This document shows positions 2,177 through 63,390 of a DNA stretch of 64,000 nt, piece after piece. The notes beneath the pieces are model-generated. The model was not told where the DNA came from, did no database searches, and saw nothing but the letters and a program-made list of their open reading frames with translations. Made by a program: the position numbers and the translations under genes. The DNA is from Shigella phage Shfl2. Positions within the stretch are counted from its first letter, which is position 1; each line of letters begins with the position of its first letter. The stretch lies in the sequence record HM035025; one strand, written 5' to 3'.

Positions 2177-3996
2177 TACTGGCTCATCCATTCTTTACGA
2201 AGGTCAGCATTATCTCCCATGAGCATTTCAAAAAGCTCTTTCCAATTCTCAGGAAGTTTAACAACATCATATACTGGGTTTTGAATCATCTCACGATATT
2301 CAGATTTTTCCAAAGAGCCAAGTCCCTTAATATAACGGATGCTATGTTTAGGTAGAGCATCTTTGGCACTCTCATATTCAGCGACTGTATAAAACCATTC
2401 TTGTTTTTTACCGACCTGAGCGATGATTACAGGAGTTTTGACAAAGCGAATTCGTCCTTGCTCAAACAGTTCTGGCCAATTACTAAAAAACCCGAGCAGA
2501 GAAGGATAAATGCTTCCTAGACCATCATGGTCAGCATCAGTCATAATAGCAATATTATGATAATTCAAGTTTTCAGCTTTTTCACCGAGAACTAATCCAG
2601 TGATTGCGCAAATATCAAATAGTTCTTTGTTTTTAAGCATATCAGCATATGACATACCCCAACTGTTGAGAACTTTACCGCGCAATGGATAACCACCGTG
2701 AAGTTCTTTATCACGAACATCAATAAGATATCCGATAGCCGAATCACCCTCGGTTAAGAACAATGTAGTATCAGCATCTTTACCACAAAGATTCGCTTTG
2801 ATATGTTTATGAACCTTTGCCTTAGAAGCCTTTTTAGCTGCTTTAGTTTCTGCTGCTTTTTCTGCTGCCAATTTACGAGCTAATGCTGCTTCAATAATTG
2901 GCATCAAAATTGCTTCATTATTTAGAATAGCACGTGAAATCTTTTTAGCATCAAGTTGAATATGACTACGAATTTCACCAAAAGGAGAAGTAAGTCGTTC
3001 TTTAGTTTGAGAATCAAATCGCATGTTTTTCATATCACGGACAAACATAACGATAGTCAAACATTCTTTGACACGTGCTTTAGTTACATCAATTTTGAAC
3101 TTACGTTTGATTTGTGGAATAAGGTCTTCACAAATATCATCCATAACACAGTCAATGTGATGGCCACCATTCTTAGTGTGAATGTTATTCACATAAGTTA
3201 ATTGACGAAATCCATCTGGTGAACGACCAACCGCAATAGAACAATTTTCTTGTTCTTGAACAATAGCATGTTCATCATACTGTCGTGCATATTTCTTAAA
3301 ATTGCCCTGAACCTTTTTACCATTAAAGGTAAATTGAATATCAGGATAAACAACAGCAAGTGTCTGGAGACGATCTAGTGTAATGTCAAGATAAACTTGG
3401 GACAGCTCATTAGTTTCAAATGACATAAAATCAGGAATGAAAGTAACACGAGTTCCTTTCCATTTTCCTGGAATAGTTTCCCATGATTTATTTTCCATGC
3501 CATTTGAACAACGAACTACAATATTATTTTGACCGTCGCCAGTTTCACCAACAAACATCACAGAAAAAATGTTTGTCAAACTAGAACCAACACCATTCAT
3601 ACCGCCGGTGACACGTTCTTTATCATCACCGAAGTTACCACCTGCTTTTGGAATAGTCCACGCAGCAACAGGACCAGGAATTTCTTCACCGGTAGGTGTT
3701 TTAACCATCGCTTGTGGAATACCGCGACCGTTATCTTCAACTGTTACCTGATTATTTTTAATGTTAACATTAATTTTATTCGCGAATTTAAACTTAGTAC
3801 GAATACCTTCATCTACTGAGTTATCGATAATTTCATCAATAAGCTTAACAAGACCAGGTACATACTGAACACTTTCCCATTTACCAAACAGAAAGCGCTC
3901 ATGCATTTCATTAGCTGAAGAGCCAATGTACATGCCGCTACGCTTTTTGATATGTTCAATATCGCTCAGAATTTTAATTTCATTCTTAATCATCAC
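2176..3996 (-). CDS. 39: DNA topoisomerase II large (ATPase, GyrB-like) subunit, unsplit form
   Basis: 606 aa, starts MIKNEIKILSDIEHIKKRSGMYIGSS; GHKL ATPase motifs (VEDNGRGIP, GxxGxG); a single continuous ORF, unlike the T4 39 + 60 arrangement. Confidence 0.9.
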   Translation of the reverse strand: MMIKNEIKILSDIEHIKKRSGMYIGSSANEMHERFLFGKWESVQYVPGLVKLIDEIIDNSVDEGIRTKFKFANKINVNIKNNQVTVEDNGRGIPQAMVKTPTGEEIPGPVAAWTIPKAGGNFGDDKERVTGGMNGVGSSLTNIFSVMFVGETGDGQNNIVVRCSNGMENKSWETIPGKWKGTRVTFIPDFMSFETNELSQVYLDITLDRLQTLAVVYPDIQFTFNGKKVQGNFKKYARQYDEHAIVQEQENCSIAVGRSPDGFRQLTYVNNIHTKNGGHHIDCVMDDICEDLIPQIKRKFKIDVTKARVKECLTIVMFVRDMKNMRFDSQTKERLTSPFGEIRSHIQLDAKKISRAILNNEAILMPIIEAALARKLAAEKAAETKAAKKASKAKVHKHIKANLCGKDADTTLFLTEGDSAIGYLIDVRDKELHGGYPLRGKVLNSWGMSYADMLKNKELFDICAITGLVLGEKAENLNYHNIAIMTDADHDGLGSIYPSLLGFFSNWPELFEQGRIRFVKTPVIIAQVGKKQEWFYTVAEYESAKDALPKHSIRYIKGLGSLEKSEYREMIQNPVYDVVKLPENWKELFEMLMGDNADLRKEWMSQ

Positions 3997-4045
3997 TTAT
4001 CCTCGTTTGGTTTCGGGAATATTATACTCCGGTAATCATAAAGCT

Positions 4046-4063
4046 AAAGGCCCGAAGGCCTTT
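4046..4063 (-). terminator. stem-loop with CGAA/UUCG tetraloop downstream of lipoprotein gene
   Basis: aaaggcc-cgaa-ggccttt inverted repeat abutting the stop codon. Confidence 0.45.
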
Positions 4064-4335
4064 TATTTAAAACGAATAGTTGAATCCTTAAAGAACAGCC
4101 CAGAACATACTGTTCCTTCTACTTTCTGCCCGGTAGGTCCAATAGCACGAAATCCAGTATGTTGGAAATCATTTTCAGAGCAACCAAACCAATTGTATCC
4201 AGTGATTTCAATATTAGTAAACCCACTTGAAGACAAAACTTTGGTTGCATTATCAGCATCAGTACATCCTACTAAAGATACTGCTAATACTAATGCCGCG
4301 ATAGAACGATTAATATATTTCATAATTTCACTCAA
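4063..4335 (-). CDS. small lipoprotein (signal peptide plus lipobox LVGC)
   Basis: 90 aa; N-terminal hydrophobic segment ending LVGC then a Cys-containing mature part. Confidence 0.55.
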   Translation of the reverse strand: MSEIMKYINRSIAALVLAVSLVGCTDADNATKVLSSSGFTNIEITGYNWFGCSENDFQHTGFRAIGPTGQKVEGTVCSGLFFKDSTIRFK

Positions 4336-4699
4336 ATTTAATGGCTTGAAGAAGACTAATAATTCTCAAGCGACTTCTTTCATCTTTAACTGTAAAAGAA
4401 AGAGGGTCACCAGATTTCATAGTAATAGTACATTCAAAATCAAAATCTTCGGAAACTTCTTTGAAGAAGTCAAATTCTTCATCATAAATTAGAACATTAC
4501 TCTGACAACTATGAAGAATTTTTCCATCATTTCCAGATGCTGTACTAATCATCGTAACATTGCGACCTTTCATATCTTCAACGATAAATTCGCTTGTAGA
4601 TATTACAGCATTAATAGAACCATTCCTATAAATAGCAGACATTAGATATTTCTTTTCTTCGCCTTCGCGAATACGATATTTCTTACCGATTTTAAACAT
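4328..4699 (-). CDS. hypothetical protein
   Basis: 123 aa ORF tightly packed between neighbours. Confidence 0.45.
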   Translation of the reverse strand: MFKIGKKYRIREGEEKKYLMSAIYRNGSINAVISTSEFIVEDMKGRNVTMISTASGNDGKILHSCQSNVLIYDEEFDFFKEVSEDFDFECTITMKSGDPLSFTVKDERSRLRIISLLQAIKFE

Positions 4700-5895: not shown

Positions 5896-6387
5896 TTATG
5901 CATAGCGAGCTTTGCTATAGTGTTTAATCCAACTTTCAGGAATGACTTTGTATGTTCCTAAAAATACCACGTTGTACAACTTAACGCCATCTTCTACCCA
6001 CTGATCGGTAATGTATGCACACATAGCACGAGTGCGTTGTTTAGATCCTTTCTCGTCTTCAATAAATTCGAATTCATAAGGAGCAACGAACTTAATAGCC
6101 TGACCGAGTTTCCACTTAAAGTCTACACCTACATGCGAAGTATCAATCGTTTCAATTCCTTTAGCAGGAACAGCTTTCAAAAACGCAGACTCAAGAAATT
6201 TCGCACGAACATAGCCAAACTGAGGTTTAGACTTTCCATCTTTAGGAATGATACGCACTTTTACTTCAGAATCTTCATCTTTAACACCATGTTTAAGCTG
6301 AATACTTACAATTTCGACCAATTTTCCTGCTGCTTTAGAACGAGATTTATCAGATACACGAGCAATTTCACCAATATTAATAATCAT
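5896..6387 (-). CDS. motB-like protein
   Basis: 163 aa at the T4 motB position (T4 MotB ~162 aa); C-terminal region paralogous to the next ORF. Confidence 0.45.
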   Translation of the reverse strand: MIINIGEIARVSDKSRSKAAGKLVEIVSIQLKHGVKDEDSEVKVRIIPKDGKSKPQFGYVRAKFLESAFLKAVPAKGIETIDTSHVGVDFKWKLGQAIKFVAPYEFEFIEDEKGSKQRTRAMCAYITDQWVEDGVKLYNVVFLGTYKVIPESWIKHYSKARYA

Positions 6388-6462
6388 AGTTATCTCTCAC
6401 TTGTTAAAAAGATTTTATACTCCACGAGGGACCATTATACTCTGGTCCCAAGAGTTTGTAAA

Positions 6463-6963
6463 CTAGCTTACACGAACATTAATCACTGCGCTGCGAGGAA
6501 CTACAGAGTATTCTCCAGCATGAACTACATTAAGAAGTTCAACGCCATCTTCAATCCATTGGTCAGTTACCCAACCGCCGACCGGATTCGCAAATGGACG
6601 ACGAATGTAAACCGCCTTACACAACAAATCAGTCGGGTCTTCAATTTTTTCAACTGGTGCCACATACATAGAAACTAAATCCATATCAATATGGGATTTT
6701 TCCTCTTCTTTTTCAATTTCTGTCAATAGACTAAAATCTTTTTCATAAATAATAAGCGATGACACCATTCCATAATAGTTTCTAATTTCAATATACATCA
6801 TGCCGATAAGAATTCCGCTATTAACACTAATAACAGTAAAAGGATATCCGCCGGTTAAAGCAAGAAGTTCACAAAACTTATTATGAGCTGTATTAGATAG
6901 TACCGGAAAATTCTTAATTTCATCAAATTTTTTCAATTGATAAACAGCATTATTTTTAATCAT
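6463..6963 (-). CDS. hypothetical protein, C-terminal domain paralogous to motB-like ORF
   Basis: 166 aa; ...WVTDQWIEDGVELLNVVHAGEYSVVP vs ...YITDQWVEDGVKLYNVVFLGTYKVIP in 5896..6387. Confidence 0.45.
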   Translation of the reverse strand: MIKNNAVYQLKKFDEIKNFPVLSNTAHNKFCELLALTGGYPFTVISVNSGILIGMMYIEIRNYYGMVSSLIIYEKDFSLLTEIEKEEEKSHIDMDLVSMYVAPVEKIEDPTDLLCKAVYIRRPFANPVGGWVTDQWIEDGVELLNVVHAGEYSVVPRSAVINVRVS

Positions 6964-15131: not shown

Positions 15132-15341
15132 TTAAATTACATGATTATTTATAATAAATTCTCGCGGAACGTTAAAATATCCGATTTTAGTTAATATAAC
15201 AACATCACCGTTAATAACTACCGGAGAATAATCGTCTGGAGCATTAAACTTCCAATGAGCTCTAATATTATATCCATCAGAACCAAATGCTCGACTAGCC
15301 GGTCTCCCGGCTTTTTGCCATGCATAAAAATCAAATTTCAT
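15132..15341 (-). CDS. hypothetical small protein (soc.1-like)
   Basis: 69 aa ORF. Confidence 0.4.
   Translation of the reverse strand: MKFDFYAWQKAGRPASRAFGSDGYNIRAHWKFNAPDDYSPVVINGDVVILTKIGYFNVPREFIINNHVI
15146..15153 (-). promoter_or_regulatory. late promoter TATAAATA upstream of soc
   Basis: Exact TATAAATA on the minus strand about 30 nt upstream of the soc ATG. Confidence 0.55.
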
Positions 15342-15538
15342 TTTGAATGCTCTATAATTAATTTTAAGGCTTCTTCATGCACCTTACCTAATTGTATATG
15401 TCCAGTTTTAATTGTGTAAGCTTTGTGGAGCTGATTAGATAAGAGCTCGTATGTGAGCTCCTTGTCATAATTTTTAAATAGCTGGTCAATACGTTTCTTG
15501 TGGGCTTTCTTAAGCTGGCGTTTATTTAAACGAGCCAT
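15338..15538 (-). CDS. hypothetical small basic protein (soc.2-like)
   Basis: 66 aa ORF. Confidence 0.4.
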   Translation of the reverse strand: MARLNKRQLKKAHKKRIDQLFKNYDKELTYELLSNQLHKAYTIKTGHIQLGKVHEEALKLIIEHSK

Positions 15539-16056
15539 TAATAACCTCGGTCTTGACGAGCGAAGTTTTCAGCATTTTTCAGATAATAAAGTTTAAAGAT
15601 TTCTTCAGCTGACATTCCAAGAGCAATGAATTTATTCATGAAAAAGTGAAATTGATCAATCAATTCAAATTTAATTTCAAGTTGATCTTCAGGAGATAAA
15701 TCTTGAATTTTCTTGGATTGCATTTCAGAATAACGTTTCTTCCAAGGTTTCCATACAGCAGAAGCTTCTTTTTCGCCATTGCTCATACCACCAAGAGAAG
15801 TATATAGCTCGCGAGTTTCGTCTGCGATATAATCGTCTTGGTTTCGCAACCAAGCAAGAACTTCTCCTGCAGTTTCAAGTGAATCAGGATGACGATTTGT
15901 TTCTGGTTTATCATTAGCCAAACGAATCTGTAAATGCCGCTGCATATCAAGCATAACCTGCAGTGGGTCAATATTGTGCATAATATTCTCAGCATATGCA
16001 CGATTTGCTTTATCAACACCTTCGATCAAATGAGCACATTCATTAAAGTAAGCCAT
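15538..16056 (-). CDS. 56: dCTP pyrophosphatase (MazG-like), gene 56
   Basis: Start set at internal MAYFNECAHLIEGV (SD AAGGA upstream), giving 172 aa; EE/D metal-binding motifs; the track's longer 203 aa form adds a hydrophobic extension that overlaps the plus-strand ORF. Confidence 0.75.
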   Translation of the reverse strand: MAYFNECAHLIEGVDKANRAYAENIMHNIDPLQVMLDMQRHLQIRLANDKPETNRHPDSLETAGEVLAWLRNQDDYIADETRELYTSLGGMSNGEKEASAVWKPWKKRYSEMQSKKIQDLSPEDQLEIKFELIDQFHFFMNKFIALGMSAEEIFKLYYLKNAENFARQDRGY

Positions 16057-16127
16057 TATTTTTCCTTTCAATTCATGGGTTAGTAGATTAATTATACAAT
16101 AAATATATAAAGCAATAAGGAGGACAT

Positions 16128-16328
16128 ATGGTACAAAAATTAATGGCACTTGTTAATGCCATCAAAGGTAATAAAAAACGTATAGCTTTTACTATTTCTG
16201 CTATGGTAGGAATTTTACTCTGGAACTTTATTTTATCACCTGTTGCAATTGCACATGGTATTAATATTCCAGTAGTTACTCTTGATACATTTGTAGATTT
16301 AGCATTTGCTTTAGTTGGGTTAATTTAA
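16128..16328 (+). CDS. plus-strand small two-helix membrane protein
   Basis: 66 aa; AAGGAGG SD 4 nt before ATG; two hydrophobic segments; lies where no minus-strand ORF exists between 56 and 61. Confidence 0.4.
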   Translation: MVQKLMALVNAIKGNKKRIAFTISAMVGILLWNFILSPVAIAHGINIPVVTLDTFVDLAFALVGLI

Positions 16329-17353
16329 ATCTTAGCATATTTAGATAGCCGCATTTTAGCCATTAACCCCTGCGCAATATTATTTTTCATATATTCCATA
16401 ATCTGTTCAGGGGTTGCACCTTCCTTTCTAATCATATCATTGACATCTTTTGATTTCCAGGGAGATTTATCCCAAAACATAACCCTTTCTCCTGCATCAA
16501 CTAATTTAGTCATTCGCTTGATAGTGTCAGGGTGACGAGGTTCATTATCTAAGACCCACACTCGTCTATCTTTAAATGGAACAACTTCTAGGTCTAATTG
16601 ACCACCCGTAATAGCTATACCATTTTCAATAAAAAGCGAATCTATAGGTCCTTCTAGAACATATACATCACCATCTTTAACTCGTTCAACACCGTAAATT
16701 TTTGTTGCCTCAGGATAAGCTTTGATGGTGATATACTTTTGTGGAGCATCTTTCTTTAATGCACGTCCTTGAAAAGACTCAGCTTTTCCATTTGCATTAT
16801 AAATTGGAATAACAAGACGAGGCTCAGAAATTTCCTTTTTGTATGTTCCCGGTGCTATGCTATTAACTAATTTAGGCCATTCGGTTGTAAACCAAAGATA
16901 TTTCCATTTATCCTTTGGAATACAACGAGCTTTTACATATTTTATAATTGGATGGTCTTCCGCCAGTTTATCTAATCTAACACATGACGGAAGAGATTTA
17001 ATTATTTTCTTCTCAGGTTGTTTAGGAAGTTCTTTAGGTTTTTCTACTGGACGACTTTTACCTTTTTCTTTTCTTATTTCAAAGATATACTCACGATATA
17101 AATCAGGTTCAAACTCCTTTAAATATATTCCGATTGGTGCGTGATAGTTACAGTTATAACAATGAATATTTCCTTCATTATTATCACCATAATACCATCC
17201 ACGGGCTTTATTTTGGTCGGTTTTTGAATCTCCACAAACAGGACATCTAAACCGCAATTTAAAAGTTGAACTATTATTTACTTGTGTGAATTTAGGTAAA
17301 TGAGCTAATGCACGATATGCAAACTCATTATCAATCCAAGGTATTGATGACAT
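16325..17353 (-). CDS. 61: DNA primase
   Basis: 342 aa; zinc ribbon CPVCGDS...CYNC and TOPRIM-like C-terminal region; size matches T4 gp61. Confidence 0.92.
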   Translation of the reverse strand: MSSIPWIDNEFAYRALAHLPKFTQVNNSSTFKLRFRCPVCGDSKTDQNKARGWYYGDNNEGNIHCYNCNYHAPIGIYLKEFEPDLYREYIFEIRKEKGKSRPVEKPKELPKQPEKKIIKSLPSCVRLDKLAEDHPIIKYVKARCIPKDKWKYLWFTTEWPKLVNSIAPGTYKKEISEPRLVIPIYNANGKAESFQGRALKKDAPQKYITIKAYPEATKIYGVERVKDGDVYVLEGPIDSLFIENGIAITGGQLDLEVVPFKDRRVWVLDNEPRHPDTIKRMTKLVDAGERVMFWDKSPWKSKDVNDMIRKEGATPEQIMEYMKNNIAQGLMAKMRLSKYAKI

Positions 17354-17355
17354 TT

Positions 17356-17520
17356 TTACTCTTCTTTTTCTTTAGATTCCTCTTTTTTCTTTTTAGGAAT
17401 CTGTTCAGGACCTTTATTTACTATAGCACCTGACGTTGTTCCAGTGGAGATATTTTCAGGATTACCACCTGAATCTCCAGCTACCATATCTTCTTTGATA
17501 AATTCTTTATATGTTTTCAT
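17356..17520 (-). CDS. small acidic/lysine-rich peptide with capsid-targeting-sequence-like N-terminus
   Basis: Hand-translated MKTYKEFIKEDMVAGDSGGNPENISTGTTSGAIVNKGPEQIPKKKKEESKEKEE; GAGG SD; first 10 residues resemble the T4 internal-protein CTS MKTYQEFIAE. Confidence 0.4.
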   Translation of the reverse strand: MKTYKEFIKEDMVAGDSGGNPENISTGTTSGAIVNKGPEQIPKKKKEESKEKEE

Positions 17521-17521
17521 A

Positions 17522-17878
17522 TTAACCTCTATTCATAAAAGCATTAAAAATTTGGTCATCAATTGATGGAACAGCAACCTTTTCTACATCATTTAACAAA
17601 TCATTAATTTCATCAGATAGCATAACGCATGTACCTTTATTTCCTGTAATTGTTACTGCGCAATTACGAACGTTTTCTTTATCAAATTTTAGGTTAATAT
17701 TTTCGTAGTGAAAATCCTTTAATGCCGAATATATTTTTAAAATGAAATTGTCTTTTACTACAATAAAACCGACTTCACTATTAAAACGCGGCTCATGAAA
17801 ACTGTAATAAACCTTTTCATCTATAAAATCGTATGAAATTTTTTCCATTTTTAAATATGAAAATTCAGAACTATACAT
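17522..17878 (-). CDS. hypothetical protein (61.1-like)
   Basis: 118 aa; C-terminus ...SIDDQIFNAFMNRG shared with the next ORF. Confidence 0.45.
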   Translation of the reverse strand: MYSSEFSYLKMEKISYDFIDEKVYYSFHEPRFNSEVGFIVVKDNFILKIYSALKDFHYENINLKFDKENVRNCAVTITGNKGTCVMLSDEINDLLNDVEKVAVPSIDDQIFNAFMNRG

Positions 17879-17879
17879 A

Positions 17880-18506
17880 CTAACCTTTATTCATAAAAGC
17901 ATTAAAAATTTGGTCATCAATAGAAACATTTACTTTAGACTGTTTTTCTGATGGTAATTCATATCCACATATTACAATTTTGTGATCAATATCAAAATAC
18001 ACAGAAGCAATATGATTAATGATGTTTTCAGTAAAGTCTAAATCAACATCAATATCTTTTTGACCACAGCCCAAAGGATAAATAATGCGAGTAATTCGAT
18101 TATCTTTAACAAATATTCCACCGACATACTCTGTGCTGCGTTTAAAGTCTACACGCCGACGAAATGAAAAATATTCAGGCTCTCTATGAGCTCGGCTCAT
18201 AGGACACAACGAGTAACTAGAATAAGAGATGTCAAATCCTACGCCTTCAATATGAGCCAAAGTGTCATGATTAAACCAATTATAATCGTACGCCAAATCC
18301 ATTAGATTATAATATGTAAAAGGCACCGGATTAACATCATTAGTCACAAGCATGTAATTAGCAACTGCTATAATTTCATTGTTTTTAACGAATACAAACC
18401 GTGATTGATGCGAATGACCTGGACCCGCGTTTTCACGATTAATGATATAACACTGGGCACCTTTATATTTGTATGTATCTTTGCACTTGTGCATTTGATA
18501 GAGCAT
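17880..18506 (-). CDS. hypothetical protein (61.2-like)
   Basis: 208 aa; C-terminus ...SIDDQIFNAFMNKG. Confidence 0.45.
   Translation of the reverse strand: MLYQMHKCKDTYKYKGAQCYIINRENAGPGHSHQSRFVFVKNNEIIAVANYMLVTNDVNPVPFTYYNLMDLAYDYNWFNHDTLAHIEGVGFDISYSSYSLCPMSRAHREPEYFSFRRRVDFKRSTEYVGGIFVKDNRITRIIYPLGCGQKDIDVDLDFTENIINHIASVYFDIDHKIVICGYELPSEKQSKVNVSIDDQIFNAFMNKG

Positions 18507-62421: not shown

Positions 62422-63390
<969 letters not shown>

Follow-up and report, generated by a model that had tools for sequence, protein, structure and literature searches.

In the T4-like phages a family of small proteins named RB69ORF029w or RB32ORF030w (the latter carrying the older description 'similar to RB69ORF029w') is already known. 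It is annotated as a hypothetical protein in hundreds of genomes, among them those of RB69, RB32, RB14, and vB_EcoM-UFV13 (hereafter UFV13), and corresponds to PHROG 2024, whose category is unknown function. Other described systems resemble it in map position, in expression, or in size. The T4 dam gene, which maps between genes 56 and 61, codes for a DNA adenine methyltransferase of 259 aa. Class II holins and pinholins (e.g. S68 of phage 21) are proteins of ~65–70 aa that are made late and have hydrophobic inner-membrane helices. The soc gene of T4 is a small late gene located in the early-gene block near oriA; it is on the early-gene strand, codes for a soluble capsid decoration protein, and has its own TATAAATA late promoter, annotated as P(L)15.32 in T4 record X01416.

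We analyzed a window of 64,000 nucleotides from Shigella phage Shfl2 (the whole stretch of DNA under study, from sequence record HM035025), a segment of a Tequatrovirus (T4-like) genome in which a 66-aa ORF lies in the 268 bp (16057–16324) separating gene 56 from gene 61 (Table 1). It is the same gene as RB69ORF029w/RB32ORF030w, at the same position and on the same strand. The original prediction had proposed a plus-strand ORF in this gap, preceded by an AAGGAGG Shine-Dalgarno sequence and convergent on the primase gene, and the ORF and its neighbors are indeed arranged in this way. The ORF and primase genes stand tail to tail with overlapping stop codons that share the sequence TTAA, and on the minus strand the gap contains no ORF of more than 25 aa with a start codon in the ORF list, also as predicted.

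Table 1. Features at the gene 56–61 junction of the Shfl2 window.
Feature	Position	Strand	Basis and remarks
Gene 56 (dCTPase/dUTPase)	15538..16056	-	tblastn with T4 gp56; annotated likewise in the locally identical UFV13
MotA-type middle promoter of gene 56 (predicted)	16091..16116	-	mot-box ATTGCTT at 16116..16110, 13-nt spacer, -10 TATAAT at 16096..16091
Late-promoter box AATAAATA (predicted)	16098..16105	+	variant of TATAAATA having A at -13; 22 nt between its end and the ORF ATG
Shine-Dalgarno sequence AAGGAGG	16117..16123	+	4 nt upstream of the ORF ATG; read from the sequence
66-aa ORF (RB69ORF029w/RB32ORF030w family, PHROG 2024)	16128..16328	+	ATG start; sequence and ORF list
Terminator-like hairpin	stem 16165..16140, T-run 16139..16130	-	consensus scan and folding; in ORF codons 1–13
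Gene 61 (DNA primase)	16325..17353	-	tblastn with T4 gp61 and ORF list; convergent with the 66-aa ORF

The left boundary of the gap is set by gene 56. Residues 1–171 of T4 gp56 match 16056..15541 at 69% identity (tblastn), and a 203-aa version of gene 56 in the ORF list, extended to a GTG codon, was rejected because the gp56 homology begins at the ATG at 16056. The overlap between the 66-aa ORF and the 5′ end of gene 56 that had been thought possible does not occur, as gene 56 starts at this ATG and a spacer of 71 nt separates the two. The window primase is 99% identical to T4 gp61 (residues 1–342, tblastn), whereas the adjoining gp56 is only 69% identical to its T4 counterpart (window 15132–16056 compared with 1107–2286 of the T4 locus), and the difference places a mosaic boundary within the 56–61 intergenic region. 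T4 has the homing endonuclease gene segF beside gene 56; the window has two small ORFs there (15132–15341 and 15338–15538). The 2.1 kb around the 66-aa ORF are 100% identical to UFV13, whereas the whole 64 kb are only 92–97% identical to UFV13 and all other phage records (the best whole-window matches in the phage collection being at 96–97%), illustrating the fine-scale mosaicism of these phage genomes.

Over the whole window the plus strand has 24 ATG ORFs with a length of 66 aa or more. Long ones at 3926–4492 (188 aa) and 6037–6678 (213 aa) are antisense to minus-strand early genes, and their translations look to be of low complexity. In UFV13, the closest annotated record, the 66-aa ORF is named BIZ64_gp033, a hypothetical protein, and it is the sole plus-strand CDS in the first ~75 kb, in keeping with its description as the only plus-strand ORF of the window that sits in a gap between minus-strand genes.

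The ORF had been said to lie where T4 carries dam, and this part of the original prediction fails, as T4 has the same ORF alongside dam. In T4 (NC_000866) dam spans 16846–17625 and gene 61 ends at 17935, leaving a 309-bp gap with no annotated feature. This gap holds an ORF at 17738–17938 (L001 3239–3439 in our locus set) that is identical to the window protein at 64 of 66 residues. It is not annotated in T4 records NC_000866.4, AF158101.6, or X01416, the last of which (dating from 1984) marks only a putative early promoter there; the ORF is also unannotated in JS10 (L046 1501–1701) and PEi20 (L049 1423–1608). The confusion with dam arises because the ORF is missing from the T4 reference annotation, and since T4 carries both, the ORF coexists with dam and is not its replacement. 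The likeness of the two is limited to map position: dam is on the opposite strand, and the Dam enzyme has no similarity to the ORF product.

Sequence likeness between T4 and the window extends to the mot-box of the gene 56 middle promoter and resumes at the Shine-Dalgarno sequence of the ORF, and the ~880 bp dam cassette sits exactly between these two elements. In most Tequatrovirus loci there is nothing in this interval beyond the 71-nt spacer. It is occupied by dam in T4 and locus L006, by dam and about 550 bp more in loci L007 and L026, and by a homing endonuclease gene in fPS-90; the dam-less layout is present also in Mosigvirus, Gaprivervirus, and Dhakavirus. At a threshold of 90% identity or more, 182 phage records hold T4-type Dam and 501 hold the ORF. 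These comparisons mark dam as an optional cassette in a hot spot for insertion, carried by T4, T2, and roughly a third of the Tequatrovirus records, and the ORF as the constant feature. The window was correctly predicted to have no DNA methyltransferase-like ORF: with T4 Dam and E. coli Dam as tblastn queries the best match has an E value of 0.8, and the whole UFV13 genome likewise gives no significant match to Dam.

By hmmscan the window protein has a full-length match to phrog_2024 (E = 1.4e-31; protein residues 2–66 with profile positions 1–65 of 65), and many records carry annotated proteins with 100% identity to it. The ORF is found by tblastn in 691 phage records, in identity bands of at least 90% and of 44–57%. 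It is on the plus strand and tail to tail with primase in Tequatrovirus, Mosigvirus, Gaprivervirus, Dhakavirus, Marfavirus, Kanagawavirus, Moonvirus, and Klebsiella T4-like phages, and its position beside the primase gene is fixed across at least eight Tevenvirinae genera. The placement between gene 56 and primase holds for all 33 of the loci compared below and for seven further genera. An exhaustive phmmer search covering 1.84 billion representatives gave only three genuine clusters, plus fragments; the long repeat proteins P0032, P0036, and P0037 that it also returned were rejected on reading as compositional or repeat matches. A 61-aa database protein (P0034) departs from the T4-type sequence by A>V, T>I, P>L, H>Y, and S>F changes spread over its length. 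These substitutions form a C-to-T conversion pattern, and the protein is probably derived from an assembly of bisulfite-treated T4-like reads rather than being a natural variant.

A profile search identified a second subfamily (subfamily B), also of 66 aa and of the type MGTLFYQIWKL...LWNLLVVPIAATQG..., which is the only form of the gene that Dhakavirus, Marfavirus, and Klebsiella T4-like phages have, and of which Kanagawavirus and Moonvirus have more distant versions. In Gaprivervirus it forms the second of two tandem paralogues (in UPEC01, L012 1495–1692 and 1701–1901), and Gaprivervirus DK-13 (L009 2872–3621) has a homing endonuclease gene between the first copy and primase. Neither the window nor UFV13 contains a paralogue of the 66-aa ORF. 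Some database labels in this family are misleading: several records wrongly call the second Gaprivervirus copy a 'DNA packaging ATPase', and other members are labelled 'DNA helicase' or 'thymidylate synthase' in some records.

The predicted MotA-type middle promoter of gene 56 lies upstream of the ORF and diverges from it. In sequence it is almost a duplicate of T4 P(M)16.53, the primer promoter linked to replication origin oriA. In a side-by-side comparison the T4 counterpart in X01416 has ATTGCTT, a 14-nt gap, and TATAAT, and the identical sequence in fPS-90 is annotated as a 'predicted middle promoter'. The late-promoter box of the ORF, which is followed by the AT-rich sequence TATAAAGCAAT, is nested in the 13-nt spacer of this middle promoter, and the locus would be a neat case of a late promoter placed within the spacer of a divergent middle promoter of the oriA type.

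An ATAAATA core is present upstream of the ORF in 11 of 13 distinct upstream contexts, with 16–24 nt between the end of the box and the ATG. The box is a perfect TATAAATA in Marfa and CIP9 and takes the form AATAAATA in Mosigvirus and JS10 as well as in the window; T4 has GATAAATA, and Gaprivervirus and PEi20 have CATAAATA. Moon has TATTAAATA, which is not a clean box, and the metagenomic locus L042 has none. The base at -13 may be T, A, G, or C, and this variation, like the two contexts with no clean box, counts against reading the box as a late promoter; the A found in the window is the commonest variant of the T4 late promoter, occurring at 9 of 50 listed sites (PMC2988020). The sequence (T/A)ATAAATA is rare, with only eight sites on both strands of the 64-kb window, and apart from the present box it marks late genes: other sites precede soc and a lysozyme-sized ORF e at 13–30 nt from the ATG. 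On the minus strand at 62937–62957 there are two TATAAATA boxes 13 nt apart upstream of a 164-aa ORF; this ORF matches the lysozyme gene e in size and position, and the paired boxes may constitute a tandem late promoter.

Early and middle transcripts of T4 have a single polarity and late transcripts may have either (PMC2988020), and because the 66-aa ORF is on the opposite (clockwise) strand, which T4 transcribes only late, and has a late box, it is probably a late gene. It would be transcribed from a gp55-type promoter at the normal distance and translated from a strong Shine-Dalgarno sequence, and its product would most likely be made only once DNA replication has begun. The predicted mRNA, which would start ~15 nt upstream of the ATG, would be complementary to the 3′ untranslated part of the primase message. 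The ORF thereby resembles soc, likewise a small late gene in the early-gene block with a box at a similar distance from its ATG (the window soc box ends 30 nt before it), but it differs from soc in being on the opposite strand, in converging on primase, and in encoding a predicted membrane protein. Literature searches found no publications on the ORF, transcript and protein data included.

Within the first 13 codons of the ORF there is a terminator-like hairpin on the minus strand, and a 'terminator' is annotated at the equivalent position in fPS-90; this hairpin may end the gene 61 transcript. Its distribution is limited to Tequatrovirus; Mosigvirus and Gaprivervirus do not conserve it, and the peptide segment encoded at this position is conserved in genera without the hairpin. 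With this restricted distribution the hairpin is secondary to the coding constraint, and its occurrence in a single genus led us to reject it as the element chiefly conserved here. There is no plus-strand terminator within 1.2 kb downstream of the ORF, such that a late transcript would run antisense into gene 61. An Rfam search gave no match.

The coding capacity of the ORF was evaluated by comparing 33 loci of three genera, drawn from public phage, viral, and metagenome collections. When the 272-nt stretch containing the ORF was shuffled, an ATG ORF of at least 66 aa arose in 91 of 20000 shuffles (p ~0.005); length by itself is modest evidence, and conservation is decisive. The frame is intact, at 65–66 aa, in all 33 loci. 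The ATG is conserved, as is the Shine-Dalgarno sequence, which is AAGGAGG or AAGGAGA in all orthologues. Pooled pN/pS in the ORF frame is 0.18 in Tequatrovirus and 0.16 in Mosigvirus, the +1 frame being the lowest or joint-lowest among the frames tested, and pairwise dN/dS among the Tequatrovirus sequences is ~0.1–0.36. Variable sites are distributed over codon positions 1:2:3 as 29:8:43. In intergeneric comparisons the proteins are ~50% identical and synonymous sites are near saturation; the +1 frame of the ORF has an identity of 0.49–0.55 and a mean BLOSUM62 score of 2.7–2.95, compared with 0.36–0.41 and 1.2–1.8 for the sole other open frame, that of primase on the minus strand. By the measures of selection used here the ORF is a real gene, as had been predicted, in which the plus-strand protein is what selection preserves.

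It could be argued that the region is a non-coding spacer that is conserved simply for the promoters and terminator of its neighbors, with the ORF open by chance. A middle promoter and a terminator-like hairpin do lie in it, the T4 records treat it as non-coding, and the length of the ORF is only modestly unlikely. We nevertheless regard this as extremely improbable, since the regulatory elements are confined to the upstream region and the first ~40 nt of the ORF, and because the low pN/pS and the periodicity of substitutions by codon position contradict it, as do the conserved start signals and a frame that is intact not only in the 33 loci but also in further genera at ~20–55% identity. Alternatively, the coding strand could be the minus strand, with a read-through extension of gp61: the primase frame is open for 78 codons beyond its TAA, with no stop from 16324 down to 16091, and within genera the pN/pS values of this frame and the plus frame are equally low. 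However, the two frames have their wobble positions in common, and openness is expected opposite a gene for a hydrophobic protein, where T is at the second position of sense codons. The extension would have no start codon before 16165, its intergeneric conservation is far below that of the plus frame, and in Gaprivervirus it contains a stop and is physically apart from gene 61; we rejected read-through on the grounds of this poorer conservation and the Gaprivervirus stop, and its chances are just as slight as those of a non-coding spacer.

A further alternative gives the role to RNA rather than protein, with one of the convergent ORF and primase transcripts shutting off the other as an antisense RNA, in the manner of a type I toxin-antitoxin system. 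The convergent, overlapping layout is conserved, there is no terminator for the plus-strand transcript over the 1.2 kb noted above, and, as the gene 61 hairpin (stem at 16140–16165) is at the opposite end of the ORF from primase, the primase 3′ UTR would extend over the whole of it. On the other hand, selection acts on the amino acid sequence and not on nucleotides alone, Gaprivervirus keeps the ORF despite having a homing endonuclease gene or a second copy before gene 61, and the hairpin is confined to Tequatrovirus. We therefore consider the RNA explanation very unlikely, if less so than the two preceding ones; an antisense effect could accompany the protein but cannot be the main reason for conservation of the ORF.

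The predicted protein begins with an amphipathic, basic segment (residues 1–18) that contains five K/R and no acidic residues. All of the K/R in the protein are within this segment, and only two acidic residues follow, with the C-terminus ending in ...DLAFALVGLI. From the sequence, the one tryptic fragment suited to detection would be LMALVNAIK, the remainder being a hydrophobic peptide of 48 residues, and ordinary trypsin-based proteomics would probably overlook the protein. Residues 19–37 form an insertable transmembrane helix with a Hessa sum of +0.4 (-2.4 in Gaprivervirus). The C-terminal 18 residues have a value of +4.3 here and of +10 to +13 in the second subfamily, which argues that they are not an autonomous transmembrane helix. 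An AlphaFold monomer built from a 33-sequence alignment (mean pLDDT 80) has helices at residues 2–12, 16–42, and 52–63. W32, N33, P38, and G44 are invariant in both subfamilies, P48 is near-invariant, and an acidic residue is present at position 53 in all but one of the aligned sequences, giving a conserved core pattern of WN..P..G..P..(D/E).

Simple hydrophobicity scales and the AlphaFold monomer are together best read as describing a single-pass protein with its N-terminus inside, a transmembrane helix at approximately residues 19–42, and a short acidic tail of ~24 residues that carries the conserved motif and would be periplasmic or folded onto the membrane. Of the two-helix membrane protein originally predicted, the membrane location and the first helix are upheld, and the second helix is weak, with its +4.3 value and only 12 residues in the AlphaFold model. 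A two-helix form is possible for the T4-type subfamily but is unsupported across the family. Searches of Pfam (E up to 10), NCBIfam, and PADLOC gave no match to the protein, there was no match in the PDB either by sequence profile search or by Foldseek, and Foldseek against BFVD returned only the protein's own family.

Taking these findings together, we think it very likely that this is a conserved single-copy gene of the T-even phages, unrelated to dam, whose product is a late-made single-pass inner-membrane protein acting through a partner in the envelope. The basic N-terminus of the 66-residue protein would be cytoplasmic, and the protein would act late at the cell envelope, where its conserved motif would bind a second protein of the membrane or periplasm. 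The most plausible class of role would be control of lysis timing or of membrane integrity; in this reading the protein would be neither an enzyme nor an autonomous pore.

A more specific proposal is that the protein is itself a holin, antiholin, or pinholin-like protein, accumulating late and either forming holes or regulating the T holin. It is small, is predicted to be late and in the membrane with at least one transmembrane helix, and is thus similar to the class II holins and pinholins in size, expression, and hydrophobic helices; the UniProt entry of one orthologue also carries the automatic label 'Holin'. However, the search of holin and antiholin families suggested with the original prediction yielded nothing in Pfam, NCBIfam, or PHROG, and, the protein's own orthologue aside, the holin-labelled Foldseek matches are weak, with E values above 5. 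The charged, hydrophilic C-terminal tail of class II holins is absent. In subfamily B the C-terminal segment cannot be credited as a second transmembrane helix, and none is credible family-wide. Nor is the gene part of a lysis cassette: its neighbors encode dCTPase and primase rather than endolysin or another lysis protein, in UFV13 holin t, lysozyme e, and the spanins are located elsewhere, and the lysis proteins of these phages already include the T holin, RI, RIII, and spanins. A holin-type function thus seems improbable to us, although it is the least improbable of the alternatives weighed here. For the single-pass envelope protein a lysis role is itself weakened because no r-type (lysis) mutation is known to map at the ORF. 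That the gene has stayed out of the T4 annotation through 40 years of study suggests that the phenotype of a knockout in a laboratory host is probably mild.

Taken as a sequence feature the ORF is ordinary: it belongs to a known phage protein family and already bears the annotation of a hypothetical protein. What is added here is the unannotated T4 copy, the conserved late-promoter box, the position shared by at least eight genera, the second subfamily, and the likely single-pass topology. The T4 reference omits a gene that is under clear purifying selection, and omics data mapped to NC_000866 cannot see it. A conserved T4 membrane protein with predicted late expression is a cheap and well-defined lead for a knockout and for re-analysis of RNA-seq data. 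We suggest tentatively, as a possibility that we would not yet favor, that T4 and essentially all of its enterobacterial T-even relatives have an overlooked late gene with a real role at the envelope, be it in lysis timing, lysis inhibition, membrane integrity, or protection from abortive infection, the mRNA of which may also pair with the primase message.
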